NCBI GenBank assembly: GCA_012518115.1
Contig: JAAYTD010000013.1
Location: 64,179-128,178, forward strand
Direction: 5' to 3'
Length of the DNA: 64,000 bases
Source: Ignavibacteria bacterium
GTDB taxonomy: Bacteria > Bacteroidota > Ignavibacteria > Kapaibacteriales > UBA2268
Shown here piece by piece: positions 23,658 to 57,928 of this stretch. The notes under the pieces are model-generated. The model was given only the letters and a program-made list of their open reading frames with translations, searched no databases and was not told the origin of the DNA. Numbering within the stretch: position 1 is the stretch's first letter; each line of letters starts with the position of its first letter. The translations under genes were made by a program, and so were the position numbers.

Positions 23658-25280
23658 TTACAGCATATCTATCAGCTTTTGGACTGATTCTTTCGCATCG
23701 CCCAACAATAGATGCACACCTTTTTCTTTTTTATACAGCGGATTATCAACCCCTGCATAGCCTGGATTAAGGTCAAAGTTACAAATGAAAATCTCTTTAG
23801 CTTGATCGACATTCAATACCGGCATTCCATAAATCGGTGTATCCACAGCGTCGCGCGCTGCTGGGTTAAGCACGTCATTAGCTCCAATTACAATTACTGC
23901 ATCCGTATTTTTGAAGTCGTCATTTATAGCGTCCATTTCATACAGTTGTTCATAAGACACATCAGCTTCCGCTAGTAGCACGTTCATATGTCCGGGCATA
24001 CGACCTGCAACAGGGTGAATCGCATAACGAACTTTTGCACCTTTACTTTCCAACTTATCCGCTAGTTGTCTAACTAAGTGTTGCGCTTGTGCCAACGCCA
24101 TACCGTAACCGGGAACAATTATTACCGATTTCGCATTTTGTAGAACATCAGCGGAATTGTCTTTTTTAGTTTCAATAGTAGAAGTTTGCGATGTTTTACT
24201 GTCTAACATTGCAATCAATTTATTCACCGATTCTTTTGCATCGCCTAACAGCAAATGAACGCCTTTTTCTTTTTTATACAGCGGATTATCCACTCCCGCA
24301 TAACCGGGATTTAAGTCAAAGTTACAAATGAAAATCTCTTTTGCTTGATCGACATTCAATACTGGCATTCCATAAATCGGTGTATCCACAGCGTCGCGTG
24401 CTGCTGGGTTGAGTACGTCATTAGCTCCAATTACAATTACTGCATCCGTATTTTTGAAGTCGTCATTTATAGCGTCCATTTCATACAGTTGTTCATAAGA
24501 CACATCAGCTTCGGCTAATAATACGTTCATATGTCCGGGCATACGTCCAGCAACAGGGTGAATAGCGTAACGAACTTTTGCACCTTTACTTTCCAACTTA
24601 TCCACTAGTTGTCTAACTAAGTGTTGCGCTTGTGCCAACGCCATACCATAACCGGGAACAATAATAACCGATTTCGCATTTTGTAGAACATCAGCAGAAT
24701 TGTTTTTTTGAATTTCAGTAGCAGCAGTTTGCGATGGCTTACTGTCTAACATTGAAATCAATTTATTAACCGATTCTTTCGCATCGCCTAACAACAAATG
24801 CACACCTTTTTCTTTTTTGTAAAGCGGATTATCCACTCCAGCATAGCCGGGATTTAAGTCGTAGTTACAAATAAATACATTTTTTGCTTGATCGACATTC
24901 AATACAGGCATTCCATAAATAGGTGTATCCACAGCATCACGAGCAGCAGGATTAAGTACGTCATTAGCTCCAATTACAATTACTGCATCCGTATTTTTGA
25001 AGTCGTCATTTATAGCGTCCATTTCGTACAGTTGTTCATAAGACACATCAGCTTCCGCTAGTAGCACATTCATATGTCCGGGCATACGACCTGCAACAGG
25101 GTGAATAGCATAGCGAACTTGTGCTCCTTTACTTTCTAACTTATCCGCTAGTTGTCTAACTAAATGTTGCGCTTGTGCCAATGCCATACCATAACCGGGA
25201 ACAATAATAACCGATTTCGCATTTTGTAGAACATTTTCAGACGATGTCTGTTTTGTTTCCACTTTTTCTTCTTTTTTAGG
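23658..25280. repeat. Three tandem ~540-bp direct repeats (about 93-95% identical by eye) inside pntB, each encoding one dIII domain
   Basis: Seen in sequence: units approximately 23658-24200, 24200-24740, 24740-25280; differences are mostly synonymous or conservative substitutions. Confidence 0.85.
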
Positions 25281-26168
25281 TTTAGCGGCAACAGCTTGTG
25301 TTTTTTCAGTTTTTTTGCCTGCTACAGATGTTTTTCCAGTCAGAATATCCATCAAGCTTCTATTCATTGAGCGGCACATAATCTGTGTAAGGAACAAGCC
25401 CGATGCTCCAACAATTCCCCCAACTGAAACCAAAAGTATATCACTTATCGCCATACCTGCAATTGCACCAGCAACACCACTTAGCGAGTTAAGCAATGAT
25501 ATAGTAATAGGCATATCTGCACCACCGACACGGATAGCAAAAGCGTATCCAAAAAGGGTGCTTATTCCAATACTTAAAAACAATATTATTGTAATATCGG
25601 TAGATGGATCTATTATATCGCCGATAAAAGCAGAGTAAACAACAGTAACTAACAGAATGATAAGACTAAAGTTAAGAATTGCGGAATGATTTTTCCAAAT
25701 TACTGGTCGTTGAGACAAAAGTTTGTGCAGTTTTCCTGCTGCTACTAAACTTCCAACAAGAGTAACAATTCCGACAACTATTGCTAATACTGCTGTTACG
25801 TTTGAAAAAATTGGATATTCTTGTTCTGGCGCCTGTCCTATTCCGAGTAAGGTAAGAATTCCCACCAAAGCCGAAGCTAAGCCTCCTACACCATTAAGCA
25901 AAGCAACTAGCTGTGGCATCTCAATCATTTTTACCCTGACGGCAAACATACTGCCAACAATAACACCTGCAAGCATATAAATGTATATACTTGCAACCGA
26001 AATTATTTCATTATATAGTAATGTAATAAGTATTCCTACGAACACACTTATTGCACTGAGGATATTTCCTGCAACGGCAGTTTTTACCTTGCTCATCATA
26101 GAAATACCCACCAATACTAATATTGATAGTATAGCACAAATTACTAAATAGACTGTTGAAGTTATCAT
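23658..26168 (-). CDS. pntB: NAD(P) transhydrogenase beta subunit with three tandem NADP(H)-binding dIII domains
   Basis: 836 aa: ~290-aa polytopic membrane domain, then three ~180-aa copies of SVIIVPGYGMALAQAQH...GRMPGHMNVLLAEADV...IVIGANDVLNPAA...GMPVLNVDQAK. The 4-nt overlap (ATGA) with the upstream pntA-II gene is typical of pnt operons. Confidence 0.9.
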   Translation of the reverse strand: MITSTVYLVICAILSILVLVGISMMSKVKTAVAGNILSAISVFVGILITLLYNEIISVASIYIYMLAGVIVGSMFAVRVKMIEMPQLVALLNGVGGLASALVGILTLLGIGQAPEQEYPIFSNVTAVLAIVVGIVTLVGSLVAAGKLHKLLSQRPVIWKNHSAILNFSLIILLVTVVYSAFIGDIIDPSTDITIILFLSIGISTLFGYAFAIRVGGADMPITISLLNSLSGVAGAIAGMAISDILLVSVGGIVGASGLFLTQIMCRSMNRSLMDILTGKTSVAGKKTEKTQAVAAKPKKEEKVETKQTSSENVLQNAKSVIIVPGYGMALAQAQHLVRQLADKLESKGAQVRYAIHPVAGRMPGHMNVLLAEADVSYEQLYEMDAINDDFKNTDAVIVIGANDVLNPAARDAVDTPIYGMPVLNVDQAKNVFICNYDLNPGYAGVDNPLYKKEKGVHLLLGDAKESVNKLISMLDSKPSQTAATEIQKNNSADVLQNAKSVIIVPGYGMALAQAQHLVRQLVDKLESKGAKVRYAIHPVAGRMPGHMNVLLAEADVSYEQLYEMDAINDDFKNTDAVIVIGANDVLNPAARDAVDTPIYGMPVLNVDQAKEIFICNFDLNPGYAGVDNPLYKKEKGVHLLLGDAKESVNKLIAMLDSKTSQTSTIETKKDNSADVLQNAKSVIIVPGYGMALAQAQHLVRQLADKLESKGAKVRYAIHPVAGRMPGHMNVLLAEADVSYEQLYEMDAINDDFKNTDAVIVIGANDVLNPAARDAVDTPIYGMPVLNVDQAKEIFICNFDLNPGYAGVDNPLYKKEKGVHLLLGDAKESVQKLIDML

Positions 26169-28299: not shown

Positions 28300-28821
28300 A
28301 TGGCTAATTTAGAACAAAAAAAAGTAGTTGTATCTGACTTGGTAGATATGTTCAAGAGCACTACGGGTATTTATTTTGTTGATTTTGCCAGATTAACGGT
28401 AAAAGATCTTAATGAAATCCGTAAAGAATTTAGAGATGTTTCGGCAAAAATGCTTGTGTCGAAAAATACTCTTATTTTGCGTGCTTTGTCAGAAATAGAA
28501 GTTGAATTAGCTGAAGGACAATTAGCAGGTCAAACAGCTATAATTTTTGCGGGAGAAGATGCTACGGCACCTGCGAAGATAATAAAGAAAGTTTTTGACA
28601 AAACAGGCAACCTTGGCTTGAAATTGGTACTTATCGAAGGTCAGTTATATGACGGAAAGCAATTAAATTTAGTTGCTTCTTTACCGTCGAGGACAGATTT
28701 GATGGCTGGAATTTTAGGTTCTTTGCAATCACCTGCTTCTGGAATCGTCGGTTCAATCAATGCTGTTATTCGTGATCTTGCTTCGCTTATTGAAGAGGTT
28801 GCAAAAAAGAAATCAGCATAA
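28300..28821 (+). CDS. rplJ: 50S ribosomal protein L10
   Basis: 173 aa; position immediately upstream of L7/L12; conserved L10 N-terminal region. Confidence 0.85.
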   Translation: MANLEQKKVVVSDLVDMFKSTTGIYFVDFARLTVKDLNEIRKEFRDVSAKMLVSKNTLILRALSEIEVELAEGQLAGQTAIIFAGEDATAPAKIIKKVFDKTGNLGLKLVLIEGQLYDGKQLNLVASLPSRTDLMAGILGSLQSPASGIVGSINAVIRDLASLIEEVAKKKSA

Positions 28822-28911: not shown

Positions 28912-29289
28912 ATGGCTGCTAACATAGAAAAACTGTTAGAAGAAATATCAAATTTAACACTCGCAGAAGCTGCTGAGTTAAAAAAATTAATGGAAGATAA
29001 ATTTGGCGTAACTGCTGCGGCTCCAGTAATGATGGCCGGTGGTGCAGCGCCTGCAGCAGCAGAAGCTGTAGAAGAAAAAACAGAATTCGATGTTGAACTT
29101 ACAGACTTCGGAGCTAATAAACTTAATGTAATTAAAGCGGTTCGCGAAATTACCGGACTTGGCTTAAAAGATGCTAAAGATATGGTAGAAGGCGCTCCTA
29201 AAATAGTTAAAGAAGCTTGTACAAAAGAAGAAGCTGAAGAACTCAAGAAAAAATTAGAAGACGCTGGCGCTAAAGTTACATTGAAGTAA
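28912..29289 (+). CDS. rplL: 50S ribosomal protein L7/L12
   Basis: 125 aa; N-terminal dimerisation helix, Ala/Pro hinge ([18 protein letters not shown]), conserved C-terminal domain ([28 protein letters not shown]...). Confidence 0.95.
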
Positions 29290-29307
29290 TTTTCTTCTGA
29301 TAAATTT

Positions 29308-29350
29308 AAGTCTATGAATAATTTATATCTTAATTTGTTCATAGACTTTT
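29308..29350 (+). terminator. Strong hairpin plus T-run between rplL and tRNA-Trp/rpoB; candidate rplL-rpoB attenuator
   Basis: AAGTCTATGAA-(18-nt loop)-TTCATAGACTT followed by tttt at 29308-29350. Confidence 0.6.
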
Positions 29351-29351
29351 T

Positions 29352-29424
29352 ACGGGCATAGCTCAACTGGTAGAGTGACGGTCTCCAAAACCGTAGGTTG
29401 CGGGTTCGATTCCTGCTGCCCGTG
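29352..29424 (+). tRNA. trnW: tRNA-Trp (anticodon CCA)
   Basis: Cloverleaf folded by hand: acceptor ACGGGCA/TGCCCGT, D-arm GCTCAACTGGTAGAGT, anticodon loop TCTCCAAAA, T-arm GCGGGTTCGATTCCTGC. Closely resembles E. coli tRNA-Trp. Confidence 0.9.
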
Positions 29425-29666
29425 CTTATTAAACTAATAAAAATATCTTGAACATTTATCTATTTTATTAATTGTAGAAGATATATCTATTGATGAAAAT
29501 AAATAGAGAATTATGGTTCTAATCTAATAAGAAAGTATCATAATTCTTTGTTTTTATACAAAAAGTAGTTATATAATTATTGTTTTGTTACTATCATTTA
29601 ATAAAAATATAAAGATATTTTTAATCATTTTATTTCAATTCAATTCCATATAAATGAGGGCGAATA

Positions 29667-32600
29667 ATGAGCGAGATGCACTCTCCGATAGAAAAAGAGA
29701 CTTTTGAGGCAACACAAAAAACACTGAATTTGTTAGATGAATATAAAAACAGCGGTAAAGGAAAGTTGCGTATTCTCGAAAGTGAAGACGATTTAGTTAG
29801 ATTGCGTAAAAGAATTACTTTTTCACGCTCCGACCAAAAAGCACCTTATCCTGATTTACTTGATATACAGCTGAAATCTTTTGAAGATTTTTTACAAGAA
29901 GATGTGCCTCCAGCTAAACGTAGAAACATAGGCTTACAATCTGCTTTCTTAGCAGCATTTCCTATAGAAGATGCTTCTGGAACACATCAATTAGAATTTA
30001 TTGAATATTCTACTGAAAAACCAAAACTAACTGAAGAACAATGTAGTGAAAGAGAGTTAACTTATTCTAAACCGCTGAAAGTTAAATTACGTTTATCCTC
30101 AAAAGCCGATAAAAATTCTGATGAATATGTAGAAGCAGTAGAACAAGAAGTCTATTTAGGCGCTATTCCTATTATGACAGAACGTGGCACATTTATTATA
30201 AATGGTGCTGAACGAGTTATTGTTAATCAAATACATAGATCGCCCGGAGTGTTTTTTGATGATGCAATACATCCAAATGGAACAAGAATTTATTCCGCTA
30301 GAATAATACCTTTCCGTGGTTCTTGGGTAGAGTTTATAACAGATATACATGATATAATGTATGCGTATATTGACCGTAAGAAAAAATTCCCTGTTACAAC
30401 TTTATTAAGAGCTCTTGGTTTTTCTTCAGATGACGAAATATTGAATTTGTTTAATTTGACAGTTACTGTTGAACCTGAAAACTTAGATGACAGTTTTTTA
30501 GGTAGAAGAATAGCTGCTGATGTTGTAGATTTAAATACAGGTGAAATAATAGCAAATCGTGATATGTTGATAACGGAAGATATTCTAGAGATGTTTAATT
30601 CTACAGAAATTCCGCCACTTAAATTATTCGCTTATGTTGATCCTGCCGACGAACCAATTATAGCAAAAACTATATCTAAAGATGTTACTAGGAACAGAGA
30701 AGAAGCGCTTGATATGGTGTATAGGCAACTGCGTACAAGTGAAGCGCCAGATATAGAAACAGCGTGGGGATTACTAGAAAAACTGTTTTTTAATCCTAAA
30801 AAATATGACTTAGGTGAAGTAGGACGATATAGAATAAACGATAGGCTGAAGGAAGTGTTTGAAGAAATGGACGCTCCATTTGTAGAAACAACAACTTTAA
30901 CTATTAATGATATTGTTGCTATTATAAAATATCTCATTAAATTACACGCTAATAAATTGGCAGGTGATGATATAGATCATTTAGGGAATAGAAGAGTTAG
31001 AACTGTTGGCGAACAATTAACTGCTCAAATCAATCTAGGACTAGCTAGAATGACAAGGACTATTCGGGAACGATTAGGAGCAAAAGATGATACAAATATT
31101 TCGCCATCTGATTTAGTTAATGCAAGAACTATTACCTCTGTAATTAATCAGTTCTTCGGTACAAATCAACTATCTCAATTTATGGATCAAACAAATCCAC
31201 TGGCTGAACTTACTCATAAACGTAGAACTTCTGCGTTAGGGCCAGGGGGATTAACAAGAGAAAGAGCAGGCTTTGAAGTAAGAGACGTACACTATACACA
31301 TTACGGCAGACTTTGTCCTATAGAAACACCTGAAGGACCAAATATCGGACTAATTTCTTCACTAGCTCTACATGCTAGAATAAATGAATTAGGATTTATA
31401 GAAACAGCATATAGAAAAGTCGTTGATGGAAAATTAACCGATGAGATAGATTATATAACTGCAGAAGTTGAAGACGAACATGTGGTTTGTCCTGCTTCTA
31501 CTGTTGTTGATGAAACAGGGAAAATTGTTGGCGATAAAATTAGAGCAAGATTGCAAGGAAACTATATAATAGTAACGCCTGACAAAGTCCAATATATGGA
31601 CATATCAACAGATCATATAACAAGTGCTGCAGCTGCTCTAATTCCATTTCTAGAGCATGACGATGCTAACCGTGCGCTTATGGGTTCTAATATGCAAAGA
31701 CAAGCAGTCCCATTATTGCTATCTGAAGCACCTATCGTAGGAACAGGTATGGAAGCGAGAATAGCTAAAGATGCAAGAACTTTGTTATTTGCAGAAAGAA
31801 ATGGAACAGTGGAGTACGTAAGCTCTACAAAAATAAGAATAAAATATGATGATGATAGAACAGAAGAAGAAAAATTAACACAATTCGATTTTCAGCAAGA
31901 AGCAGAATATGAATTAGCTAAGTTCTTTAGAACTAACCAAGATACTTGCGTAAATCAAAGACCTATAGTTCGTGAAGGACAACGAGTTGTTGCGGGACAA
32001 CCACTTGTTGATACTTCTTCTACAGATCAAGGCGAGCTAGCTTTAGGTAGAAATATATTAGTAGCATTTATGCCGTGGCGTGGTTATAATTTTGAAGATG
32101 CGATAATTATATCAGAACAATTAGTAGCTAAAGATGTTTTTACTTCTGTTCATATTGAAGAATTTACTTTGCAAGTACGCGATACAAAACGCGGTGAAGA
32201 AGAATTTACTCGTGAAATACCGAATATATCAGAAGAAGCTACAAAAGATTTAGATGAAGACGGTATTATTCGAATTGGTGCTAAAGTGCAAGAAGGTGAT
32301 ATTATTATTGGGAAAATTACACCGAAAGGCGAAACAGATCCAACTCCAGAGGAAAAATTATTAAGAGCTATCTTTGGAGATAAAGCAGGGGATGTGAAAG
32401 ACGTTTCTCTTAAAGCTACACCAGGAATAAAAGGAGTTGTTATAAATACAAAACTTTTTTCAAGACGATTTATGAACATGGACAAAGATACTAAAGCCGA
32501 AGAGAAAATGAAGAGCGAAATGCTAGCAAGAGAAGAAAAAAGAATCATAGAAAAAGCCAAAAATGAATTCATTGAAAGATTAGGAAACTTACTTAATGAT

Positions 32601-33596
32601 GAAACTTCAATAGGAATGAAATTATCTACAGGTGTAGTGATATTTAGAAGTGGCGAAACTATGACACGCGAAGCATTAGCAAGTAAATATACAAGTGGAT
32701 TGCTTAATATAGAATTATTGCCTGAAAAAGGAGACTATCTAGCTGACAAAAAGAAAAATAGCTTGATAGATAAAATGGTGGAAAACTTAAAACATTATAT
32801 AGAAGAAACTAGAGCAGAATTCAAAGCTAGAAAAAATAGAATAGCTGCTATTGATGAGCTACAACCGGGTATCTTGCAAATGGCTAAAGTTTATCTTGCT
32901 AAGAAAAGAAAATTGCAAGTAGGCGATAAGATGGCGGGAAGACACGGAAATAAAGGTATAGTTTCTAACATAGTCAGAAGAGAAGATATGCCGTTTATGC
33001 CTGACGGAACACCTGTAGAAATTATTCTTAATCCTTTAGGTGTGCCATCGCGTATGAACTTGGGACAATTATATGAAACAGCATTAGGTTGGGCAGGTCA
33101 TAAATTAGGTGTTCATTTTGCAACTCCTATTTTTGAAGGTGCTACTTGGGAAGAAGTTAGTGATTTCTTAGAAAGAGCAGGATTGCCAAAAGATGGAAAG
33201 ACTGAACTTTATGATGGAAGAACAGGAGAGTTGTTTGATGAAAAGGTTACAGTTGGAGTAATTTATATGCTTAAATTATCCCACTTAGTTGAAGATAAAA
33301 TTCACGCACGATCTATAGGTCCTTATTCTTTAATTACACAACAACCTTTAGGCGGTAAAGCACAGTTCGGCGGTCAAAGACTCGGTGAAATGGAGGTGTG
33401 GGCGCTTGAAGCTTATGGTGCAGCTCATATTCTTAGAGAAATGCTTACGCAAAAATCTGACGACGTGCAAGGACGCGCTAGAATGTATGAGGCTATCGTA
33501 AAAGGTGAAAATATGCCTATATCTAATATCCCTGAATCGTTTAACGTTCTTGTTAGAGAAATGCAAGGTTTGTGTTTAGATTTAGTAATAGAATAA
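29667..33596 (+). CDS. rpoB: DNA-directed RNA polymerase beta subunit
   Basis: 1309 aa; conserved RpoB blocks throughout (GNRRVRTVGE, LGPGGLTRERAGFEVRDVH, KMAGRHGNKGIVS, C-terminal IPESFNVLVREMQGLCLDL). Confidence 0.97.
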   Translation: MSEMHSPIEKETFEATQKTLNLLDEYKNSGKGKLRILESEDDLVRLRKRITFSRSDQKAPYPDLLDIQLKSFEDFLQEDVPPAKRRNIGLQSAFLAAFPIEDASGTHQLEFIEYSTEKPKLTEEQCSERELTYSKPLKVKLRLSSKADKNSDEYVEAVEQEVYLGAIPIMTERGTFIINGAERVIVNQIHRSPGVFFDDAIHPNGTRIYSARIIPFRGSWVEFITDIHDIMYAYIDRKKKFPVTTLLRALGFSSDDEILNLFNLTVTVEPENLDDSFLGRRIAADVVDLNTGEIIANRDMLITEDILEMFNSTEIPPLKLFAYVDPADEPIIAKTISKDVTRNREEALDMVYRQLRTSEAPDIETAWGLLEKLFFNPKKYDLGEVGRYRINDRLKEVFEEMDAPFVETTTLTINDIVAIIKYLIKLHANKLAGDDIDHLGNRRVRTVGEQLTAQINLGLARMTRTIRERLGAKDDTNISPSDLVNARTITSVINQFFGTNQLSQFMDQTNPLAELTHKRRTSALGPGGLTRERAGFEVRDVHYTHYGRLCPIETPEGPNIGLISSLALHARINELGFIETAYRKVVDGKLTDEIDYITAEVEDEHVVCPASTVVDETGKIVGDKIRARLQGNYIIVTPDKVQYMDISTDHITSAAAALIPFLEHDDANRALMGSNMQRQAVPLLLSEAPIVGTGMEARIAKDARTLLFAERNGTVEYVSSTKIRIKYDDDRTEEEKLTQFDFQQEAEYELAKFFRTNQDTCVNQRPIVREGQRVVAGQPLVDTSSTDQGELALGRNILVAFMPWRGYNFEDAIIISEQLVAKDVFTSVHIEEFTLQVRDTKRGEEEFTREIPNISEEATKDLDEDGIIRIGAKVQEGDIIIGKITPKGETDPTPEEKLLRAIFGDKAGDVKDVSLKATPGIKGVVINTKLFSRRFMNMDKDTKAEEKMKSEMLAREEKRIIEKAKNEFIERLGNLLNDETSIGMKLSTGVVIFRSGETMTREALASKYTSGLLNIELLPEKGDYLADKKKNSLIDKMVENLKHYIEETRAEFKARKNRIAAIDELQPGILQMAKVYLAKKRKLQVGDKMAGRHGNKGIVSNIVRREDMPFMPDGTPVEIILNPLGVPSRMNLGQLYETALGWAGHKLGVHFATPIFEGATWEEVSDFLERAGLPKDGKTELYDGRTGELFDEKVTVGVIYMLKLSHLVEDKIHARSIGPYSLITQQPLGGKAQFGGQRLGEMEVWALEAYGAAHILREMLTQKSDDVQGRARMYEAIVKGENMPISNIPESFNVLVREMQGLCLDLVIE

Positions 33597-33632
33597 TTTA
33601 ATTATAGTTATACATATATTTTAATGATTATT

Positions 33633-33668
33633 GCCGCTAGGAATTTATTTTCTTAGCGGTTTTTTTTA
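33633..33668 (+). terminator. Rho-independent terminator directly after rpoB
   Basis: CCGCTAGG-aatttatttt-CTTAGCGG (one G-U pair) followed by T8. Confidence 0.6.
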
Positions 33669-34150
33669 TTCTTAATATATTTTGTTGCAGATTTTTAAAG
33701 TCTGCTTTTTTTATTTTGTGTAAGTTTTTTTTAATACAATGGCTAATAATATTATTATATAGCCTTAATCTTCAAATTTTTTTTAAAAATGATTACTAAA
33801 ACCTATAAAAAAAGCTTAATTTGCATTTGTATAATTTATAATTATATAAGAAATAATTTTTGCAAACTAACTAGCTTGTGAAATTCTATTCTGTTGTCTT
33901 GTGTTTTGCGATGAAGCTAGCTTTGGAATGGAATATGAATAACAGATTTTTGTAGGAAATTTAATTTACTTTTTGAGTAGATTTATTATAAGATTATTTC
34001 CTGCCTTACCGCCATTTATTACTGCAAAACTACCTAAACCTATAAGTGATATTTAGAAAGTTTAGGAAAGTTGAAAAATAACTGTGATATAAACTTACTA
34101 TGAAAATAACAATAAAATTAAATAAATAAAAAATTACAAAAGGTGAAAAA

Positions 34151-35224
34151 ATGCAAGAAAATTATGCTTATTGGTTAAGACAAGTAAAACGAAACGCTTT
34201 TTCTTTGTCTTATATTTCCGATGACTTAAAAACTTTTGAACTTTGTGAAGCTGCTGTAAATAAATATGGTACTAGTTTGGAGTATGTACCCGAAGAATTG
34301 AAAAGTGCTGCCTTGTGTGAGCTAGCTGTAAGACAAGACGGTGAAGCCTTAGAGTTTGTTCCTGAAGCATTACGGAGTTCTGCTTTATGCGAATTAGCAG
34401 TAAAAGATTGTGGTCGTGCTTTAGAGTATGTGCCTTTTGAATTACGAAGTGCTGCTTTGTGTGAGCTAGCTGTAAGACAAGACGGTGAAGCCTTGAAGTA
34501 TGTTCCTGAGGCATTACGAAGTTCTACTTTATGCGAATTAGCAGTAAAAGATTATGGTCGTGCTTTAGAGCATGTACCTTTTGAATTACGAAGTGTGGCT
34601 TTGTGTGAGCTAGCTATAAATAAATATGGTAGTGCTTTGGAGTTTGTCCCTAATAAATTACGGACTTTTGAATTATGCGAATTAGCTGTAAATGAGAATA
34701 GTTATGCTTTGCAGTATGTTCCCGAAGAATTAATAACTGCGGAACTTTGCGAAGCTGCTGTAAAACGGAATAGCAAGGTTTTGAAATATGTTCCTGAAAA
34801 ATTTATTACTGTAAAACTCTGCGAACAAGTAATAGAAAATATAGATGAAGAAGATGATATCTCGTCTGCATTAGAAATTATTCCTAAAAAAATCATCACT
34901 GCCGAGCTCTGTGAAAAAGCAGTGGAAAAGTGTGGTTATGCTTTGAAATATGTTCCGGAGAAATTAAAGACTGCCGAACTTTGTGAAAGAGCCGTATTAT
35001 CACGTGGATTAGCTTTGGGTTATGTTCCTAAAAAATTTAGAACTGCGGCTCTCTGTAAAAAAGCGGTAAAAGAAGACGGTTACGCCTTGTGTGCTGTACC
35101 TAAGAAATATAAAACCTTAGAGCTTTGTAAATTAGCAGTACAATTAGATTATTGTGCTTTGCAGTTTGTTCCTGCTGAACTAATAGCAGAAGTAAAAAAG
35201 ATGTTAAGAGAAGAGAACGATTGA
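34151..35224 (+). CDS. Tandem-repeat protein of ~24-aa Cys-containing repeats (DUF4116-like), array member 1
   Basis: 357 aa, ~13 repeats of xELCELAVxxxGxALEYVPxELRSxA. RBS aaaggtgaaaaaATG. C-terminus EVKKMLREEND shared with the paralogs; N-terminus diverged from the others. Confidence 0.8.
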   Translation: MQENYAYWLRQVKRNAFSLSYISDDLKTFELCEAAVNKYGTSLEYVPEELKSAALCELAVRQDGEALEFVPEALRSSALCELAVKDCGRALEYVPFELRSAALCELAVRQDGEALKYVPEALRSSTLCELAVKDYGRALEHVPFELRSVALCELAINKYGSALEFVPNKLRTFELCELAVNENSYALQYVPEELITAELCEAAVKRNSKVLKYVPEKFITVKLCEQVIENIDEEDDISSALEIIPKKIITAELCEKAVEKCGYALKYVPEKLKTAELCERAVLSRGLALGYVPKKFRTAALCKKAVKEDGYALCAVPKKYKTLELCKLAVQLDYCALQFVPAELIAEVKKMLREEND

Positions 35225-35268
35225 TTAAAGAATAAAACTAAAAAACAATAAATTTAAAAGGTGAAAAA

Positions 35269-36360
35269 ATGAAAGATAAAAAACAACAAAATTCAACAAA
35301 AGTGGAAAAGAAAGACTACAACTATTGGTTAAAAAAAGTTGCTATTTATCCCCAAGAGTTGGAATACGTTCCTACCAAATATAAGACAGCCGAACTTTGT
35401 AAAACAGCCGTAAAACATAGCGGTTGGTCATTAGAACATGTTCCCGCCGAATTAAAGACACCGGAGCTTTGCGAATTAGCTGTAAATAACTTTGGTATGG
35501 CTTTAGAGTTTGTTCCTGAAGGATTACGGAGTTCTGCTTTATGCGAATTAGCTGTAGAAGACTATGGCTGTGCTTTGGAGTATGTCCCTATGGCATTACG
35601 CACTTCCGACTTATGTGAGCTGGCTGTAAGTCAATATGGTTATGCTTTGGAATATGTTCCTGAAGAATTAAAGACTGCCGAACTTTGTGAAAGAGCCGTC
35701 TTATCACATGGATTAGCCTTGGGAGAAGTTCCTAAAAAATTACGAACTGCCGAGCTCTGTGAAGTAGCAGTAGAAAATTATGGTTATGCTTTGGAATATG
35801 TTCCGGAGAAATTAAAGACTGCCGAACTTTGTGAAAGAGCCGTCTTATCACGTGGATTAGCCTTGGGAGAAGTTCCTAAAAAATTACGAACTGCTGAGCT
35901 TTGTGAAAAAGCCGTAAAAGAAAACGGCTATGCCCTGTGTGATGTTCCTAAGAAATATAAAACTTTAGAGCTTTGTAAATTAGCAGTACAGTTGGATGAA
36001 TGTGCTTTGAATTTTGTTCCTGCTAAATATAGAACGTCTGAATTATATGAAATAATCATAAATCAACATGGACGGATGTTTAAATATGTTCCTTCTGAAT
36101 TAAAGACCGCTGATTTCTGTGAAAAAGCAGTAAAAGAAAACGGTTGTGCTTTGGAGTTTGTCCCTGAGGAATTAAAAACTGCTGAATTATGTGAAATTGC
36201 AGTAAAAACATATGGTAAGGCATTGGAGTTTGTTCCTGAGAACTTAAAAACTATAGATTTATGCAAACTCGCCGTAAAAAAAGCTCATGGTGCTTTGCAG
36301 TTTGTTCCTGTTAAATTAAAAGCAGAAGTAAAAAAAATGTTAGAAGAAGAGAATGAATAA
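35269..36360 (+). CDS. DUF4116-like 24-aa repeat protein, array member 2
   Basis: 363 aa; conserved N-terminus MKDKKQQNSTKVEKKDYNYWLKKVAIYPQELEYVP and C-terminus AEVKKMLEEENE; identical RBS/spacer. Confidence 0.8.
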   Translation: MKDKKQQNSTKVEKKDYNYWLKKVAIYPQELEYVPTKYKTAELCKTAVKHSGWSLEHVPAELKTPELCELAVNNFGMALEFVPEGLRSSALCELAVEDYGCALEYVPMALRTSDLCELAVSQYGYALEYVPEELKTAELCERAVLSHGLALGEVPKKLRTAELCEVAVENYGYALEYVPEKLKTAELCERAVLSRGLALGEVPKKLRTAELCEKAVKENGYALCDVPKKYKTLELCKLAVQLDECALNFVPAKYRTSELYEIIINQHGRMFKYVPSELKTADFCEKAVKENGCALEFVPEELKTAELCEIAVKTYGKALEFVPENLKTIDLCKLAVKKAHGALQFVPVKLKAEVKKMLEEENE

Positions 36361-36392
36361 TTAAAAAAACAATAAATTTAAAAGGTGAAAAA

Positions 36393-37991
36393 ATGAAAGA
36401 AACAAAACAAAAAAAATCAAAAAAAGTGGAAAAGAAAGACTACAACTATTGGCTAAAAAAAGTTGCTATTTATCCCCAAGAGTTAGAATACGTTCCTAAC
36501 AAATATAAGACCGCTGAACTTTGCAAAACAGCCATAAAACATGGTGGTTGGTCATTAGAACATGTTCCCGCCGAATTAAAGACACCGGAGCTTTGTAAGT
36601 TAGCAGTAAAAGAGGATGGTCGTGCCTTAGAATCTGTTCCTTCCGAATTAAAGACCGCCGAACTTTGTGCTTTAGCGGTAAAAGAAAGCAGTTGGTCATT
36701 AAAATATGTTCCTTACGAATTGAAGACATTGGAGATCTGCGTGTCAGCATTACAAGAAAACGGTTGTATGTTAAAGTATGTTCCAGATGAATTAAAGACA
36801 ACTGAATTATGTGCTTTAACCTTACAAGAAAACGTTCCTTGGGCTTTAGGATATATTCCCGAAGAATTAAGGACATCAGAACTTTGTGCTTTAGCGGTAC
36901 AAAAAAAGGGCAACGCCTTAGAATATGTTCCTGAAGAATTAAAGACATCAGAACTTTGTGCTTTAGCGGTACAAAAAAGCAGTTATGCATTGAAATATAT
37001 TCCTGAGGAATTTAAAACACCGGATTTCTATAATTTAGCAGTAACATTAAACGGTTGTGTGTTAGAATATGTTCCAGACGAATTAAAGACATCTGAACTT
37101 TGCAAGTTAGCAGTAAAACAGAATAGCAGCGCTTTAAAATATGTTCCTGAAGATTTCCGGAGTTTTGAACTTTGCAAATTGGCAGTAACATCAGACGGTA
37201 TCTTGTTAGAATATGTTCCTGAGGATTTTAGGAGCAAGAATCTTTGTGCTTTAGCAGTAAAACAAAACGGTAGAGCCTTAAAATATGTTCCTAAAGATTG
37301 CATAACTGCCGAGCTCTGTGAAATAGCAGTAGAAGATTATGGCTATGCTTTGGCGTTTGTTCCTAAAAAATTAAAAACTACAGTCTTGTGTGAAAAAGCT
37401 GTCAAGCGATACGGCAGTGCTTTGGAATTTGTTCCTAAAAAATTAAAAACTGCAGTCCTGTGTGAAAAAGCTGTCAAGCGATACGGCAGTGCTTTGGAGT
37501 TTGTTCCCAAGAAATTCATCACTACTGAACTTTGCAAACTTGCTGTAAAAAAAGATAGTGATGCTTTGGAGTATGTTCCTAAAAAATTCATCACTACCGA
37601 ACTTTGTAAATCCGCTATAAAGCGATCTAGCGGTGCTTTGTCGTATGTTCCTGAAGATTTTATCACTGCCGAACTTTGCAAACTCGCCGTAAAAGGAGAT
37701 GGTGGTGCTTTGATGTTTGTTCCTGAAGATTTTATCACTGCCGAACTCTGTGAAAGAGCTGTATTATCACGTGGATTAGCATTGGGACTTGTTCCTAAAA
37801 AATTTATCACTGCCGAACTTTGTGAAAAAGCTGTAAAACAAGATGGTGGTGCTTTGGAGGATGTTCCTAAGAAATTCAAAACCTTAGAACTTTGTAAATT
37901 AGCAGTACAATTAGATGAATATGCTTTAAGGTATGTTCCTGATGAGCTAAGAGCAGAAGTAAAAAAAATGTTAGAAGATAAGAACGATTGA
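36393..37991 (+). CDS. DUF4116-like 24-aa repeat protein, array member 3
   Basis: 532 aa, ~20 repeats; conserved termini. Confidence 0.8.
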   Translation: MKETKQKKSKKVEKKDYNYWLKKVAIYPQELEYVPNKYKTAELCKTAIKHGGWSLEHVPAELKTPELCKLAVKEDGRALESVPSELKTAELCALAVKESSWSLKYVPYELKTLEICVSALQENGCMLKYVPDELKTTELCALTLQENVPWALGYIPEELRTSELCALAVQKKGNALEYVPEELKTSELCALAVQKSSYALKYIPEEFKTPDFYNLAVTLNGCVLEYVPDELKTSELCKLAVKQNSSALKYVPEDFRSFELCKLAVTSDGILLEYVPEDFRSKNLCALAVKQNGRALKYVPKDCITAELCEIAVEDYGYALAFVPKKLKTTVLCEKAVKRYGSALEFVPKKLKTAVLCEKAVKRYGSALEFVPKKFITTELCKLAVKKDSDALEYVPKKFITTELCKSAIKRSSGALSYVPEDFITAELCKLAVKGDGGALMFVPEDFITAELCERAVLSRGLALGLVPKKFITAELCEKAVKQDGGALEDVPKKFKTLELCKLAVQLDEYALRYVPDELRAEVKKMLEDKND

Positions 37992-38035
37992 TTAAAGAAT
38001 AAAACTAAAAAACAATAAATTTAAAAGGTGAAAAA

Positions 38036-39793
38036 ATGAAAGATAAAAAACAACAAAATTCAACAAAAGTGGAAAAGAAAGACTACAACTATTGGCTAAA
38101 AAAAGTTGCTATTTATCCCCAAGAGTTAGAATACGTTCCTACCAAATATAAGACCGCCGAACTTTGTGAAAGAGCCGTAAAACATAGCGGTTGGGTACTA
38201 AAGGACGTCCCTGCTGAATTAAAGACACCGGAGCTTTGCAAGTTAGCAGTAAAAAATAATGGTTGGGCATTAGAACATGTTCCTGAAGAATTAAAGACAT
38301 CAGAACTTTGTGCTTTAGCGGTACAAGAAGAGAGTGGAGCTTTAGAGTATGTTCCCGCCGAATTGAAGACATCTGAATTATATGCTTTAACCTTACAAGA
38401 TAACGTTCCTTGGGCTTTAGGAAATATTCCCGAAGAATTAAGGACATCAGAACTCTGTGCTTTAGCGGTACAAAAAAACGGTATGGCTTTAGGATATGTT
38501 CCCGAAGAATTGAAAACGCGGGATTTCTATAATTTAGTAGTAACATTAAACGGTTGTGTATTAAAATATGTTCCTGAGGAATTGAAGACATTGGATCTCT
38601 GCAAGTTAGCAGTAACATCAGACGGCAGCGTATTAGAACATGTTCCTGAAGAATTGAAGACGTTGGAGCTTTGCAAGTTAGCAGTAACATCAGACGGCAG
38701 CGCCTTAGAATATGTTCCTGAGGATTTCAGGAGCAAGAATCTTTGTGCTTTAGCAGTAAAACAGAACGGTAGAGCCTTAGAATATGTTCCTGAAGATTGC
38801 ATAACTGCCGAGCTCTGTAAAATAGCAGTAGAAGATTATGGCTATGCTTTAGCGTTTATACCTAAAAATTTTATTACTGCAAAACTTTGTAAACTAGCAG
38901 TAAAACGAAATAGCGGGGCTTTGAAATGTGTACCTAAAAATTTTATCACTGCAAAACTCTATGAGCTAGCGATAAAAAATACGGACGTAGAATATAAAGA
39001 TTTTACCTTAAAATATGTTCCTGATGAACTTAAGACACCGGCTCTCTGTGCGTTAGCTGTAAAAAAAGATGGTCATGCTTTGGAGTATGTCCCTGAGGAA
39101 TTACGAACTGCCGAGCTTTGTGCATTAGCTGTAAAAAAAGATGGTTATGCTTTGGAGTATGTCCCTGAGGAATTACGAACTGCCGAGCTCTGTGAAATAG
39201 CAGTAGAAAATTATGGTTATGCTTTGGAATATGTTCCTGAAGAATTAAAGACTGCCGAACTTTGTGAAAAAGCCGTCTTATCACGTGGATTAGCCTTGGG
39301 AGAAGTTCCTAAAAAATTACGAACTGCCGAGCTTTGTGAAAAAGCCGTAAAAGAAAACGGCTATGCCCTGTGTGATGTTCCTAAGAAATTCAAAACTTTA
39401 GAGCTTTGTAAATTAGCAGTACAGTTGGATGAATGTGCTTTGAATTTTGTTCCTGCTAAATATAGAACGTCTGAATTATATGAAATAATCATAAATCAAC
39501 ATGGATTGATGTTTGAATATGTTCCTAAAAAAATTAAAACCGCCGACTTTTGTGAAAAAGCAGTAAAGCTATACGGTAAGGCATTGGAGTTTGTCCCTGA
39601 AGAATTAAAAACAGTTGATTTATGTGAAATTGCAGTAAAAACATCTGGTAAGGCATTGGAGTTTGTTCCTGAGAACTTAAAAACTATAGATTTATGCAAA
39701 CTCGCTGTAAAATCAAATCGCTTTGCTTTAAGGTATGTTCCTGATGAGCTAAGAGCAGAAGTAAAAAAAGTATTAGAAGAAGAGAATGATTGA
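38036..39793 (+). CDS. DUF4116-like 24-aa repeat protein, array member 4
   Basis: 585 aa; the first ~130 nt and the preceding 45-nt spacer are near-identical to member 2. Confidence 0.8.
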   Translation: MKDKKQQNSTKVEKKDYNYWLKKVAIYPQELEYVPTKYKTAELCERAVKHSGWVLKDVPAELKTPELCKLAVKNNGWALEHVPEELKTSELCALAVQEESGALEYVPAELKTSELYALTLQDNVPWALGNIPEELRTSELCALAVQKNGMALGYVPEELKTRDFYNLVVTLNGCVLKYVPEELKTLDLCKLAVTSDGSVLEHVPEELKTLELCKLAVTSDGSALEYVPEDFRSKNLCALAVKQNGRALEYVPEDCITAELCKIAVEDYGYALAFIPKNFITAKLCKLAVKRNSGALKCVPKNFITAKLYELAIKNTDVEYKDFTLKYVPDELKTPALCALAVKKDGHALEYVPEELRTAELCALAVKKDGYALEYVPEELRTAELCEIAVENYGYALEYVPEELKTAELCEKAVLSRGLALGEVPKKLRTAELCEKAVKENGYALCDVPKKFKTLELCKLAVQLDECALNFVPAKYRTSELYEIIINQHGLMFEYVPKKIKTADFCEKAVKLYGKALEFVPEELKTVDLCEIAVKTSGKALEFVPENLKTIDLCKLAVKSNRFALRYVPDELRAEVKKVLEEEND

Positions 39794-39826
39794 TTAAAAA
39801 AAACAATAAATTTAAAAGGTGAAATA

Positions 39827-41788
39827 ATGAAAGAAACAAAACAAAAAAAATCAAAAAAAGTGGAAAAGAAAGACTACAACTATTGGTTAAAAAAAGTTGC
39901 TATTTATCCCCAAGAGTTAGAATACGTTCCTAAGAAATTTAAGACCGCCGAACTTTGTAAAAAAGCAGTGAAGCATGATGGTTGGGTATTAGAATTTGTT
40001 CCTGAAGAATTAGTAACTGCAGAGCTATGCGAAATTGCTGTAAAAACAGATGGTGAGGCTTTGGCATTTGTTCCAGATGAATTCATAATACCTGAACTCT
40101 GTGCTTTAGCGGTACAAGAAGAGGGTAGAGCTTTAGAGTATGTTCCAGATGAATTAATTACATCGGAAATTTGTGCCTTAGCAGTTAAACAGAATGGTTG
40201 GGCGTTAATATATGTTCCAGATAAATTAAAAACGTCTGAACTTTGTGCCTTAGCGGTCAAACAGGACGAGGAAGGATATATATTAAATTATGTTCCAGAT
40301 GAATTAAAGACACTGGAAGTCTGCAAGTTAGCAATAGTATCAAGCAGTTATGCATTAAAATATATCCCTGCTGAATTGAGAACGCGGAATTTCTATAATT
40401 TAGCAGTAACATTAAACGGTTGTGTATTAGAATATGTTCCCGAAGAATTAAAGACGTCTGAACTTTGTGCCTTAGCAGTTAAACAGGACGGCAGAGCATT
40501 GGAGTATGTTCCAGAATATTTTAAGAGCGAGGAACTTTGTGCTTTAGCGGTCAAACAAGACGGCAGAGCATTAAAATATGTCCCTAAAGATTTTAAGAGC
40601 AAGGAGATTTGTGCCTTAGCAGTAAAAAATTATGGCTATTCATTAGAAGATGTTCCTTCTGAACTAATTACATCAGAACTTTGTGCCTTAGCGGTCGAAC
40701 AGGCCGGCTGGGCTTTAAGACATGTCCCTGAAGACTTCAGAACAGAGGAACTATGCAAACAAGCAGTAGAAGATGATGGTTTTGCTTTGGAGTATGTTCC
40801 AGACAAATTTAAGACTGCGGATCTTTGTGAAAAAGCCATATTAACACGTGCCTCAGCTTTGGAGTATGTTCCAGACAAATTTAAGACTGCGGAAATCTGT
40901 AAACTCGCCGTAAAAAAATATGGTAGGACTTTGAGATTTGTTCCTGAAAAAATAATCACTGCAAAACTCTGCAAAAATGCTGTAAAAGGATATGGTGAGA
41001 TTTTGGAGTATGTTCCAGACAAATTTAAGACTGCGGAGCTTTGTGAAAGAGCCGTATTATCAAATGGGTTAGCTTTAGAATTTGTTCCTAAAGAATTTAA
41101 GACTGCGGAGCTCTGTGAAAAAGCTGTAAAAGGAGACGCTTGTGCTTTGGGTGATGTTCCTAAAAAATTTATCACTGCGGAACTTTGTAAATTAGCAGTA
41201 GAATTAGATGATAGTGCTTTGGATTTTGTTCCTGATGAACTCCTGACTTCCGAACTTTGTGAAATAGCAGTGGAAGGTTTTGGTGATGCTTTGTATATTA
41301 TTCCTGATGAATTTAAGACCGCCGATTTATGTGAAAAAGCAGTAAAACAATATGGTTGTGCTTTGGATTTTGTTCCCGATGAATTAAAAACTGCAGATCT
41401 TTGTAAAACTGCTGTAAATAAAAATGGCCGGGCTTTAAGGTATGTTCCTGAAAAATTAAGAACTCTTGATTTATGCAAGCTTGCAGTACAAAATGACGGT
41501 GATGTCTTTAGATATATTCCTGATAAATATAAAACGCCTGAATTATATGAAATAGTCATAAATCAACATAGATGGATGTTTGAATTTGTTCCTTTTGAAT
41601 TTAAGACCGCTGATTTCTGTGAAAAAGCAGTAAAGCTATACGGTAAAGCTTTGGAGTTTGTCCCTGAAGAATTAATAACTCTTGATTTATGCAAACTAGC
41701 TGTAGAACAGAATAGCGAAGCTTTGCAGTTTGTTCCTGCCAAATTCAAAGCGGAAGTAAAAAAGATGTTAGAAGAAGAGAATGATTGA
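39827..41788 (+). CDS. DUF4116-like 24-aa repeat protein, array member 5
   Basis: 653 aa, ~25 repeats; conserved termini. Confidence 0.8.
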   Translation: MKETKQKKSKKVEKKDYNYWLKKVAIYPQELEYVPKKFKTAELCKKAVKHDGWVLEFVPEELVTAELCEIAVKTDGEALAFVPDEFIIPELCALAVQEEGRALEYVPDELITSEICALAVKQNGWALIYVPDKLKTSELCALAVKQDEEGYILNYVPDELKTLEVCKLAIVSSSYALKYIPAELRTRNFYNLAVTLNGCVLEYVPEELKTSELCALAVKQDGRALEYVPEYFKSEELCALAVKQDGRALKYVPKDFKSKEICALAVKNYGYSLEDVPSELITSELCALAVEQAGWALRHVPEDFRTEELCKQAVEDDGFALEYVPDKFKTADLCEKAILTRASALEYVPDKFKTAEICKLAVKKYGRTLRFVPEKIITAKLCKNAVKGYGEILEYVPDKFKTAELCERAVLSNGLALEFVPKEFKTAELCEKAVKGDACALGDVPKKFITAELCKLAVELDDSALDFVPDELLTSELCEIAVEGFGDALYIIPDEFKTADLCEKAVKQYGCALDFVPDELKTADLCKTAVNKNGRALRYVPEKLRTLDLCKLAVQNDGDVFRYIPDKYKTPELYEIVINQHRWMFEFVPFEFKTADFCEKAVKLYGKALEFVPEELITLDLCKLAVEQNSEALQFVPAKFKAEVKKMLEEEND

Positions 41789-41839
41789 TTAAAAAAACAA
41801 TAAATCTAAAATTTAGAAATTTAATAAAAAGGTGAAATA

Positions 41840-43527: not shown

Positions 43528-43559
43528 TTAAAAAAACAATAAATTTAAAAGGTGAAATA

Positions 43560-52607: not shown

Positions 52608-52653
52608 ATTTTTCTTATTGATAAGTATGTGTTTTTAGAAAGATATAGAAATT

Positions 52654-53643: not shown

Positions 53644-53811
53644 GAGTTACTTTTATTAGAATTTTGGAAATGGGATAATCTATAACTTTTTATATCTAAA
53701 GAACTTTACCGAACAACATTAAATAATATAAAAAATAATAATATAAAATATATTTTTAGCTTATACGTTTATTGAATTATATAATTAACTTTTTAAAAAT
53801 GGAGTAGGGAT

Positions 53812-54327: not shown

Positions 54328-54669
54328 TCATTATATTTAATTGTTAAGAATTAATCAAGAATTAATTAAGAACATATACAAAAATATCATTTTTTTTGTT
54401 TTAACAAAGAAAAAAAACATTTTTTTTGAAAAAAATATAACAAAGACCATTTGTCAGTGATGTTTTTAAAAAAAAATGTTTTTTTTTATGTTATTTTGCA
54501 AAAATGTTATTATATTTAAATCCTATGTAATTGGTTTTATTTTTATTTTTAGAATAATTTATAATTACGATTAATAAAAACGTAATTATAATTTTGATAA
54601 AACAGAGATTTTTTTAATTAAATATATAAGTAATAACAAATTTTTTTTATTTTTTTGGAGTACAAATTT

Positions 54670-57903: not shown

Positions 57904-57928
57904 TTAAAAAATATATAGAGGAAAAAAA

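Follow-up and report, generated by a model that had tools for sequence, protein, structure and literature searches.

Unlinked rpoB and rpoC in a lineage of Kapabacteria: a rare rearrangement of known genes

In a lineage of Kapabacteria (Bacteroidota) the RNA polymerase genes rpoB and rpoC are not adjacent. The organism analyzed here is uncultured and occurs in anaerobic digesters. The split is clade-wide and old, and it is a rare rearrangement of known genes. The evidence comes from a window of 64 kb, which denotes the whole stretch of DNA that was analyzed, from further assemblies of the same organism, and from the corresponding loci of its relatives.

Gene order around rpoB

The following features were found at and around rpoB:

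28300-28821, plus strand: rplJ, ribosomal protein L10 (Pfam PF00466, E = 9e-23)
28912-29289, plus strand: rplL, ribosomal protein L7/L12 (Pfam PF00542 and PF16320)
29308-29351, plus strand: terminator- or attenuator-like hairpin (29308-29348) with U-run (-17.3 kcal/mol, z = -5.4)
29352-29425, plus strand: tRNA-Trp (CCA) (ARAGORN; Rfam RF00005, 68.9 bits versus a gathering score of 29)
29501-29553, plus strand: second hairpin with U-rich tail, in the spacer between tRNA-Trp and rpoB (-17.5 kcal/mol, z = -4.5)
29667-33596, plus strand: rpoB, RNA polymerase beta subunit, 1309 aa, intact (NCBI MGI6370742.1, 'Candidatus Kapaibacterium sp.')
33597-34150, no strand: AT-rich non-coding spacer of 554 bp at the usual start site of rpoC
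33633-33668, plus strand: intrinsic terminator 1 after rpoB, 11-bp stem (hairpin 33633-33660) followed by T8 (-18.6 kcal/mol, z = -6.4)
33687-33712, plus strand: intrinsic terminator 2 after rpoB, 8-bp stem (hairpin 33687-33705) followed by T7 (-8.2 kcal/mol, z = -3.3)
34151-45248, plus strand: nine tandem ORFs encoding DUF4116 repeat proteins (PF13475, E = 1e-54 to 1e-127)

The order of the locus is, thus, rplJ, rplL, hairpin, tRNA-Trp, rpoB, two intrinsic terminators, the 554-bp spacer, and nine tandem DUF4116 genes. A sequence-only reading of this DNA had named rplJ, rplL, the hairpin, tRNA-Trp, rpoB, the spacer and the array, and all of them were found at the coordinates listed. The rpoB gene is a single uninterrupted ORF with Rpb2 domains 1, 2, 3, 45, 6 and 7, all six above the Pfam gathering score.

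Part of the canonical operon is present, namely rplJ-rplL directly upstream of rpoB and a hairpin in the spacer, to which the inserted tRNA-Trp is added. Absent are rpoC directly 3' of rpoB and, 5' of rplJ, rplK-rplA, which canonically follow tRNA-Trp and secE-nusG. Instead, Pfam analysis revealed a divergent pntA as upstream neighbor of rplJ, and none of the genes secE, nusG, rplK and rplA was found in the window or at any locus of the clade. The earlier claims that rplK-rplA are missing here and that the core transcription locus has been rearranged hold, with rpoC gone, tRNA-Trp moved beside rpoB, and rplK-rplA gone.

The absence of rpoC from the window, also claimed before, was verified by tblastn and Pfam. 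The rpoC of a relative yielded only a match with E = 9.9, the best match of the organism's own rpoC (E = 0.039) lay inside the repeat array, and Pfam scans detected no Rpb1 domains in the large ORFs of the window. The spacer contained no ORF of at least 60 aa, no Rfam match, and no rpoC remnant detectable by tblastn with the organism's own rpoC. Both terminators were called by a terminator scan, and their energies were obtained by folding in comparison with shuffled sequences; the first is the T8 hairpin that had been described as leading into a 550-bp AT-rich non-coding stretch and then the array, and the second was found in addition.

Between positions 27700 and 34300 the tRNA was the only Rfam match. 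An L10 leader upstream of rplJ was not matched at E <= 1 in this region, a result that applies to leaders of the described type. In sigma-70 promoter scans promoter-like matches were no more common than in shuffled sequences, and promoters of this phylum deviate from the consensus used. GC skew, in the window as well as around rpoC, was uninformative about replichores because it follows the gene strand.

The organism's own rpoC

The rpoC gene, which the sequence-only reading had proposed to locate, was found far from rpoB with flanks of its own. It is P0308 (MGI6369316.1), which encodes an intact protein of 1447 aa and lies on the same contig as rpoB in assembly GCA_050949285.1, a 'Candidatus Kapaibacterium sp.' MAG that consists of a single contig of 2,555,817 bp (JBMNFK010000001.1). 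Both genes are on the same strand, rpoC at about 458,616-462,959 and rpoB at about 2,415,166-2,419,095, i.e., they are 1.95 Mb apart on the 2.56-Mb contig; on the assumption of a circular contig the distance is 0.60 Mb. Rpb1 domains 1-5 (PF04997, PF00623, PF04983, PF05000, PF04998) are present in one ORF, which is neither split into rpoC1/rpoC2 nor fused to rpoB. The gene is preceded by a terminator (positions 9782-9821 of its locus, L098), which belongs to an unrelated gene, and by a spacer; a TP_methylase gene and tmk come after it.

The comparison of rpoB and rpoC distances ('mirror tree', 34 same-contig pairs) gave a weak signal toward a group of rpoC proteins of 1445-1450 aa, and the search with one of these, P0093, led to the right cluster; P0308 is 80% identical to P0093. 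The first nine rpoC clusters considered had no member from this genome. The search with the rpoC of the relative L007 did not have the organism's own rpoC among the 120 matches listed, and amino acid composition, used as a proxy for GC content, failed to separate the candidates.

Distribution of the split among relatives

Adjacency of rpoB and rpoC is among the most conserved features of bacterial gene order. Among other bacteria, 74 loci from many phyla were informative, and in every one of them the start of rpoC is 30-490 nt past rpoB. The relative L007 is canonical, with the Pfam-based order tRNA-Trp-secE-nusG-rplK-rplA-rplJ-rplL-rpoB-rpoC. In six lineages with an rpoB 71-78% identical to that of the window, no rpoC follows rpoB, and the downstream genes differ in each. 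Such solo rpoB genes were found in L087/L088, L089, L090, L092 and L095, and they are followed by unrelated genes, e.g., for arginase or acetyl-CoA hydrolase, lpxB, or uvrA. In L093 and L094 the downstream side could not be seen because the contigs end right after rpoB. Solo rpoC genes are present in L101 and L102, and in L096 rpoC is preceded by 233 nt of non-coding sequence.

When 121 rpoB sequences were placed in a neighbor-joining tree, the lineages with a verified split delimited one monophyletic group of 15 tips, and none of the 34 rpoB sequences that share a contig with rpoC fell into it. For the nearest outgroups, P0134 and P0136, the canonical state is derived from the apparent location of rpoB and rpoC on one contig, and not from gene order read directly. 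Clade-specific indels in rpoB were limited to trivial N-terminal differences.

Could the split have arisen several times independently, in low-GC genomes that are prone to rearrangement? The flanks of both genes vary greatly among the lineages, rplJL has itself been parted from rpoB in L089, L092 and L095, and local inversions can be seen, as such a history would predict. However, all verified cases are in the one monophyletic group, which has no canonical member within it, they have an unusual adjacency of tRNA-Trp and rpoB in common, and the order rpoC-TP_methylase-tmk is found in two lineages (the organism's own locus and L101). Repeated origins are therefore highly improbable, and the split is a clade-wide, old trait.

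The DUF4116 array

The nine ORFs downstream of the spacer contain 6-17 PF13475 repeats each, with a period of 72 nt in the DNA and 49 positions in the Pfam model. The array starts exactly at the expected place of rpoC, and its insertion or expansion might have pushed rpoC away from rpoB. This is even less probable than repeated origins. In five other lineages of the clade rpoC is also missing after rpoB, and there the position is occupied by different genes in each case and by no DUF4116 gene. In addition, rpoC is 0.6-1.95 Mb away and not just past the array; the array's end is at 45248, and a response-regulator gene and then valS come next. DUF4116 genes were found at none of the relatives' rpoB loci; the array is limited to this species and, therefore, was added later and did not cause the split. 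It is an unrelated, species-specific expansion that fills a 3' flank of rpoB that had been freed long before.

The link between array and missing rpoC that the sequence-only reading had implied is thus not upheld. It had also named a simple relocation of rpoC unrelated to the array, to be recognized from canonical relatives that lack the array. The unrelated relocation stands, but the evidence came from relatives that are split themselves.

Authenticity of the locus

If the rpoB gene of the window were an extra copy, acquired horizontally or by duplication, a normal rpoBC operon should exist elsewhere. The evidence on a second copy covers the rpoB and rpoC loci and leaves this explanation very little room. 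There is no rpoB within 10 kb upstream of the organism's own rpoC, the rpoB of the window groups with those of other Kapabacteria, and its nearest relatives are equally solo. The solo rpoC genes encode proteins of 1445-1464 aa that fall into a corresponding group and have a C-terminal acidic tail in common, and rplJ-rplL are still beside rpoB, as expected for the native copy.

A misassembly at 33600-34150 had been a concern of the earlier reading. The identical rpoB protein with the same neighbors was found in six assemblies from different samples (three from JGI, two from ENA, and the NCBI assembly GCA_050949285.1 with its 2.56-Mb contig). The junction (33400-34400) matched at 1001 of 1001 positions in five assemblies, with one indel in the sixth, and the spacer (33597-34150) was 100% identical in five other assemblies. 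The flanks were 99.5-99.7% identical in five assemblies, which therefore represent different strains, while L006 matched the window exactly. Although a long AT-rich spacer in front of highly repetitive genes is a typical site for an assembler to break, and the contigs of several relatives stop just after rpoB or just before rpoC, a chimeric contig is next to impossible, because the junction was reproduced from other samples and with other assemblers, five times in strains 0.3-0.5% divergent in the flanks, and the same 2.56-Mb contig carries rpoC elsewhere with non-rpoB flanks, at a locus reproduced in two JGI samples. The artefact is refuted to the extent that sequence data permit, and the split is a real rearrangement.

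tRNA-Trp and the hairpins upstream of rpoB

ARAGORN, Rfam and folding agree with the earlier claim that tRNA-Trp lies between rplL and rpoB and is preceded by a strong hairpin with a T-run. None of 200 shuffled sequences folded as well as the hairpin at 29308-29348. Its U-run reaches up to the last base in front of tRNA-Trp and abuts the 5' end of the tRNA; direct reading of the sequence revealed no space for a promoter directly 5' of the tRNA. The outer stem of the second hairpin (GAAUUAUG/CAUAAUUC) has the same sequence in the relatives L087 and L090, and the loops are variable.

In canonical relatives tRNA-Trp is located about 3.4 kb upstream of rpoB. ARAGORN placed it adjacent to rpoB in seven of eight lineages of the clade (L087, L089, L090, L091, L092, L094 and L095), and in the eighth, L093, it detected no tRNA between rplL and rpoB. 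The adjacency has been kept even in L089, L092 and L095, from which rplJL has moved off.

Proposed history and expression

Very probably, an old rearrangement that was fixed in one lineage of Kapabacteria broke the ancestral order tRNA-Trp-secE-nusG-rplK-rplA-rplJ-rplL-rpoB-rpoC into at least three pieces, and the array came later. The first piece would be rplJ-rplL-tRNA-Trp-rpoB, closed by rpoB's own pair of predicted terminators. The second would be a separate unit at a distant site, rpoC-TP_methylase-tmk, headed by rpoC, and the third, secE-nusG-rplK-rplA, would be at some other site.

With this arrangement beta and beta' would be made from separate transcripts, and therefore their balance would depend on independent promoters and on translation, and not on co-transcription. 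The tRNA-Trp would be transcribed through read-through from rplJL. As the first hairpin abuts the tRNA on its 5' side, RNase P would excise the tRNA, and the rplJL mRNA would then end in the hairpin. For rpoB, transcription may run through the second hairpin, start at a promoter within the approximately 110 nt that precede the start codon, or do both.

A more speculative proposal, which we regard as rather unlikely, is that the adjacency of tRNA-Trp and rpoB is functional and not a leftover. The tRNA and the two hairpins would form a transcription and processing module that launches the rpoB mRNA, with beta' set separately: cuts by RNase P and RNase Z would yield a hairpin-ended rplJL mRNA, the tRNA, and a separate rpoB mRNA. 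Synthesis of beta would then be tied to the growth-rate-controlled transcription of tRNA and ribosomal proteins, and beta' would be independent at its distant locus. In that case the clade would demonstrate in nature that beta and beta' need not be co-transcribed, another control circuit having taken over.

The usual rationale for rpoB-rpoC adjacency is equal production of beta and beta' and efficient assembly. The whole clade lives with a distance of at least 0.6 Mb between the two genes, and therefore the linkage is not obligatory. The clade offers a defined set of genomes for studying subunit balance without the operon. These MAGs would be misjudged by pipelines in which rpoB-rpoC synteny serves as a plausibility check or an 'rpoBC' locus is concatenated. 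As rare genomic changes, the shared split and the adjacency of tRNA-Trp to rpoB are possible markers of this subgroup of Kapabacteria.

Comparison with known systems

The locus consists of the same genes as the canonical rplKAJL-rpoBC operon, rplJ-rplL precede rpoB, and the rplL-rpoB interval contains a terminator-like hairpin, which recalls the rplL-rpoB attenuator of E. coli. In contrast to the canonical operon, there is no rpoC downstream and no secE-nusG-rplK-rplA upstream, a tRNA is located between rplL and rpoB, and rpoB has tandem terminators. Other lineage-specific departures from the two-gene layout are the fused rpoBC of Helicobacter and Wolbachia and the split rpoC1/rpoC2 of cyanobacteria. 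In those cases the coding regions stay contiguous, whereas here they are at least 0.6 Mb apart and rpoC is one gene of 1447 aa.

According to passages of two papers, the supercluster around rpoB-rpoC is one of the best conserved of bacteria (PMC8046335, PMC6735719). For 204 genomes, Brandis 2021 lists moved rplJL genes as well as insertions, which lie between the operons or inside the operon after rplL, and its passages on changes of the supercluster do not mention separation of rpoB and rpoC (PMC8046335). Full-text literature searches retrieved plastid cases and no report of unlinked bacterial rpoB and rpoC, which is not proof of novelty. In the same passages rplJL is relocated in Haemophilus influenzae Rd, and genes are inserted within the rpoBC operon in Lactobacillaceae (PMC8046335). 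Also there, pieces of the operon could be moved or interrupted and viability was kept, but rpoB and rpoC, as described, stay adjacent, while here the pair itself has been separated, as a fixed trait of a clade. In chloroplasts of green algae, e.g., Leptosira, rpoB, rpoC1 and rpoC2 are rearranged or fragmented (PMC1931444), and RNA polymerase core genes have likewise moved off the ancestral cluster. However, the genes there are split and expanded and belong to organelle genomes, whereas here both genes are intact, of normal length, and part of a free-standing bacterial genome of 2.56 Mb.

Organization of the rpoB locus

The sequence-only reading had described an rpoB without rpoC at its 3' side and a tRNA-Trp between rplL and rpoB, and this arrangement was confirmed in every detail.

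Features of the rpoB locus in the window, plus strand
28300-28821, rplJ
28912-29289, rplL
29308-29348, strong hairpin, with a U-run reaching the base before tRNA-Trp
29352-29425, tRNA-Trp(CCA)
AT-rich spacer of 241 nt between tRNA-Trp and rpoB, holding a hairpin at 29501-29553
29667-33596, rpoB, 1309 aa, with six of six Rpb2 domains
33633-33660, intrinsic terminator 1 of rpoB, hairpin followed by T8
33687-33705, intrinsic terminator 2 of rpoB, hairpin followed by T7
Non-coding spacer of 554 bp 3' of rpoB, terminators included
34151-45248, nine tandem ORFs of DUF4116 (PF13475) repeats

The absence of an rpoC-like gene also held, as tblastn with two queries, the rpoC of a relative and the organism's own rpoC, gave only chance-level matches in the window and none at all in the 554-bp spacer. 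As had been stated, rplK-rplA is missing upstream of rplJ, where the divergent genes pntA and pntB are found instead; none of secE, nusG, rplK and rplA lies within the 64-kb window. The window, which has a GC content of about 33%, also codes for PorV, Por_Secre_tail and a CarboxypepD_reg TonB-type receptor; both the GC content and these genes indicate a member of the Bacteroidota.

The junction in other assemblies

The exact rpoB protein (MGI6370742.1, NCBI organism name 'Candidatus Kapaibacterium sp.') is present on 15 contigs, six of which were examined (L001-L006). They stem from three JGI metagenomes, two ENA assemblies (one a biogas-fermenter metagenome) and NCBI GCA_050949285.1 (contig JBMNFK010000001.1, 2,555,817 bp). 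The rpoB neighbours were alike on both sides in all six. The 1-kb junction (33400-34400) was identical at 1001 of 1001 positions in five assemblies and had one indel in the sixth. Across the surrounding 20 kb, five of the six matched the window at 99.5-99.7% identity and therefore represent different strains, while L006 was 100% identical across its 19 kb. The suspected misassembly at 33596-34151 can thus be dismissed, and the junction between rpoB and the array is no artefact.

Location of rpoC in the same genome

The own rpoC was not among the matches listed for a search with a relative's rpoC. When distances among rpoB proteins were compared with those among rpoC proteins, they pointed to a group of rpoC proteins of 1445-1464 aa, and a search with one of these, followed by listing of cluster members, led to P0308 (MGI6369316.1, 1447 aa). 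It is encoded on the same 2.56-Mb contig as rpoB.

Positions on the 2.56-Mb contig
~458,616-462,959, minus strand, rpoC
~2,415,166-2,419,095, minus strand, rpoB

The linear distance is 1,952,207 bp; were the contig circular, the two genes would be about 595 kb apart. The two protein accession numbers are 1,426 steps apart, consistent with the linear distance. Upstream of rpoC there are two genes for T9SS-sorted proteins, as well as an intrinsic terminator (9782-9821 of the rpoC locus, L098), which is followed by a spacer of about 180 nt before the start codon. Downstream, a TP_methylase gene follows after 82 nt, a gap in which no terminator was found, and then tmk. The same rpoC locus was seen again in two JGI samples.

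The split in relatives

Outside the clade, rpoC follows 30-490 nt 3' of rpoB in all 74 informative loci, from many phyla. These include the Kapabacteria/Bacteroidota relatives L007 (rpoB identity 72%) and L057 (67%), and the order in L007 is tRNA-Trp-secE-nusG-rplK-rplA-rplJ-rplL-rpoB-rpoC. The nearest relatives by rpoB (71-78% identity) differ from this layout.

Loci of relatives with rpoB (P numbers) or rpoC
P0123, P0122 (L087/L088, L090): sigma70-rplJ-rplL-tRNA-Trp-rpoB, then a convergent arginase gene
P0124 (L089): tRNA-Trp-rpoB, then acetyl-CoA hydrolase; rplL-rplJ 10 kb downstream, opposite strand
P0128 (L092): tRNA-Trp-rpoB, then lpxB and carA
P0146 (L095): tRNA-Trp-rpoB, then convergent uvrA
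P0130 (L094): rplJ-rplL-tRNA-Trp, inserted DNA methyltransferase gene, rpoB; contig stops past rpoB
P0125 (L093): recQ-rplJ-rplL-rpoB and terminator; no tRNA detected; contig stops past rpoB
L101, rpoC: divergent ftsQAZ upstream; TP_methylase-tmk downstream, matching the own rpoC locus
L102, rpoC: unrelated small genes upstream; enolase downstream
L096, rpoC: 233 nt of AT-rich non-coding sequence upstream

When 121 rpoB sequences were placed in a neighbour-joining tree, the lineages with a verified split defined a monophyletic group of 15 tips, and the 34 rpoB that are on one contig with an rpoC all fell outside this group. The solo rpoC proteins of the split clade end in a shared acidic extension, about 14 residues long (P0308 residues 1434-1447), which canonical Kapabacteria rpoC proteins do not have. 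One ancestral event is the simplest reading. The earlier view that the core transcription locus has been rearranged was correct: the unlinking of rpoB and rpoC is real, reproducible and clade-wide.

Short-read contigs of several clade members break within 30-230 nt of these genes, either after rpoB (ends of L093 and L094) or before rpoC (starts of L096, L097, L099 and L100). The AT-rich flanks of both genes seem to be hard to assemble, and such breaks may mask the split in fragmented MAGs.

tRNA-Trp and the hairpins

Canonical relatives carry tRNA-Trp ahead of secE, about 3.4 kb upstream of rpoB. In six of eight lineages of the split clade it is found 66-240 nt upstream of rpoB; a seventh has it after rplL, separated from rpoB by an inserted methyltransferase gene. 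It remains with rpoB even where rplJL departed, and the relocated tRNA-Trp is fixed beside rpoB. The insertion in the seventh lineage (L094 5638-7546) comprises an N6-adenine DNA methyltransferase gene (Eco57I/TaqI_C-type) and a 102-aa ORF.

The first hairpin stops at the first base of tRNA-Trp and leaves no room for a tRNA promoter, so that the tRNA is probably transcribed from the rplJ promoter through this hairpin and would then be freed by RNase P. The second hairpin, in the tRNA-Trp/rpoB spacer (29501-29553), has an outer stem GAAUUAUG/CAUAAUUC and a U-rich tail, which are also present in L087 (~9870-9915) and L090 (~9783-9878). The stem encloses anything between about 15 nt and about 75 nt, and in L090 a further hairpin is nested inside it. 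The element may serve rpoB in this clade as a conserved leader or terminator; an attenuator or a processing site would be other possible roles.

The DUF4116 array and a local inversion

The nine array genes are tandem paralogues on the rpoB strand and consist nearly wholly of 72-nt (24-aa) DUF4116 repeats. At 41840-43527 two DUF4116 ORFs, one of 247 aa and one of 326 aa, overlap. This split form is common to the window, L003 and L006, and a single ORF of 551-562 aa is found in L001, L002, L004 and L005; because the state differs by strain, one array member is frameshifted or polymorphic.

Among the 102 loci examined, DUF4116 genes occur only in this species, and none was found in any examined rpoB or rpoC locus of a relative. 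The proposed link between the array and the missing rpoC was accordingly not borne out: the split is unconnected with the array, which filled this flank long after rpoC had gone from it.

In L087 the minus strand upstream of sigma70-rplJ carries a block of genes for arginase, a 183-aa protein, a TonB-type receptor and a protein of ~1622-1625 aa.

Arginase block
L087, 1-7190
L090, 1-6734
Window, 52651-62818, plus strand, downstream of rpoB

The orthologues are 49-81% identical (the three larger genes 72-81%). The block lies on the opposite side and strand, and thus the rplJ-rpoB segment is inverted relative to it. About 19 kb separates rpoB from the block in the window, holding the array, a response-regulator gene, valS, and MatE, poly(A) polymerase-family and AhpC/thioredoxin-family genes.

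Other strain-variable repeats in the window

The gene pntB (NAD(P) transhydrogenase beta; 23658-26168, minus strand) has internal tandem repeats at ~23683-25234, with a unit of about 543 bp (181 aa), 91-94% mutual identity and a copy number that varies by strain. The protein has 836 aa in the window and L003 and 1017 aa in L001, L002 and L005; in L004 it is broken (808 + 191 + 127 aa). PNTB Pfam matches fall into three stretches, which suggests two or three tandem copies of the soluble C-terminal domain. The gene at 20205-23456 is built of tandem repeats of 63 and 126 nt and encodes a leucine-rich-repeat protein of 1083 aa that has a T9SS sorting domain at its C-terminus; the corresponding region differs in L004.

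Comparison with known rearrangements

Other departures from the usual rpoB-rpoC order are the fusions in Helicobacter and Wolbachia and the cyanobacterial split into rpoC1 and rpoC2, but in these the genes stay contiguous. A literature search on rpoB and rpoC yielded rearranged rpo genes in plastid genomes only, and a published bacterial case may exist. Passages from two papers (PMC8046335, PMC6735719) describe insertions, some between operons and one after rplL, as well as a relocated rplJL, and these passages do not mention a separation of rpoB from rpoC. Taken together, the genes are ordinary and intact, and their order alone is unusual; the event belongs to a known kind, the rearrangement of operon clusters.
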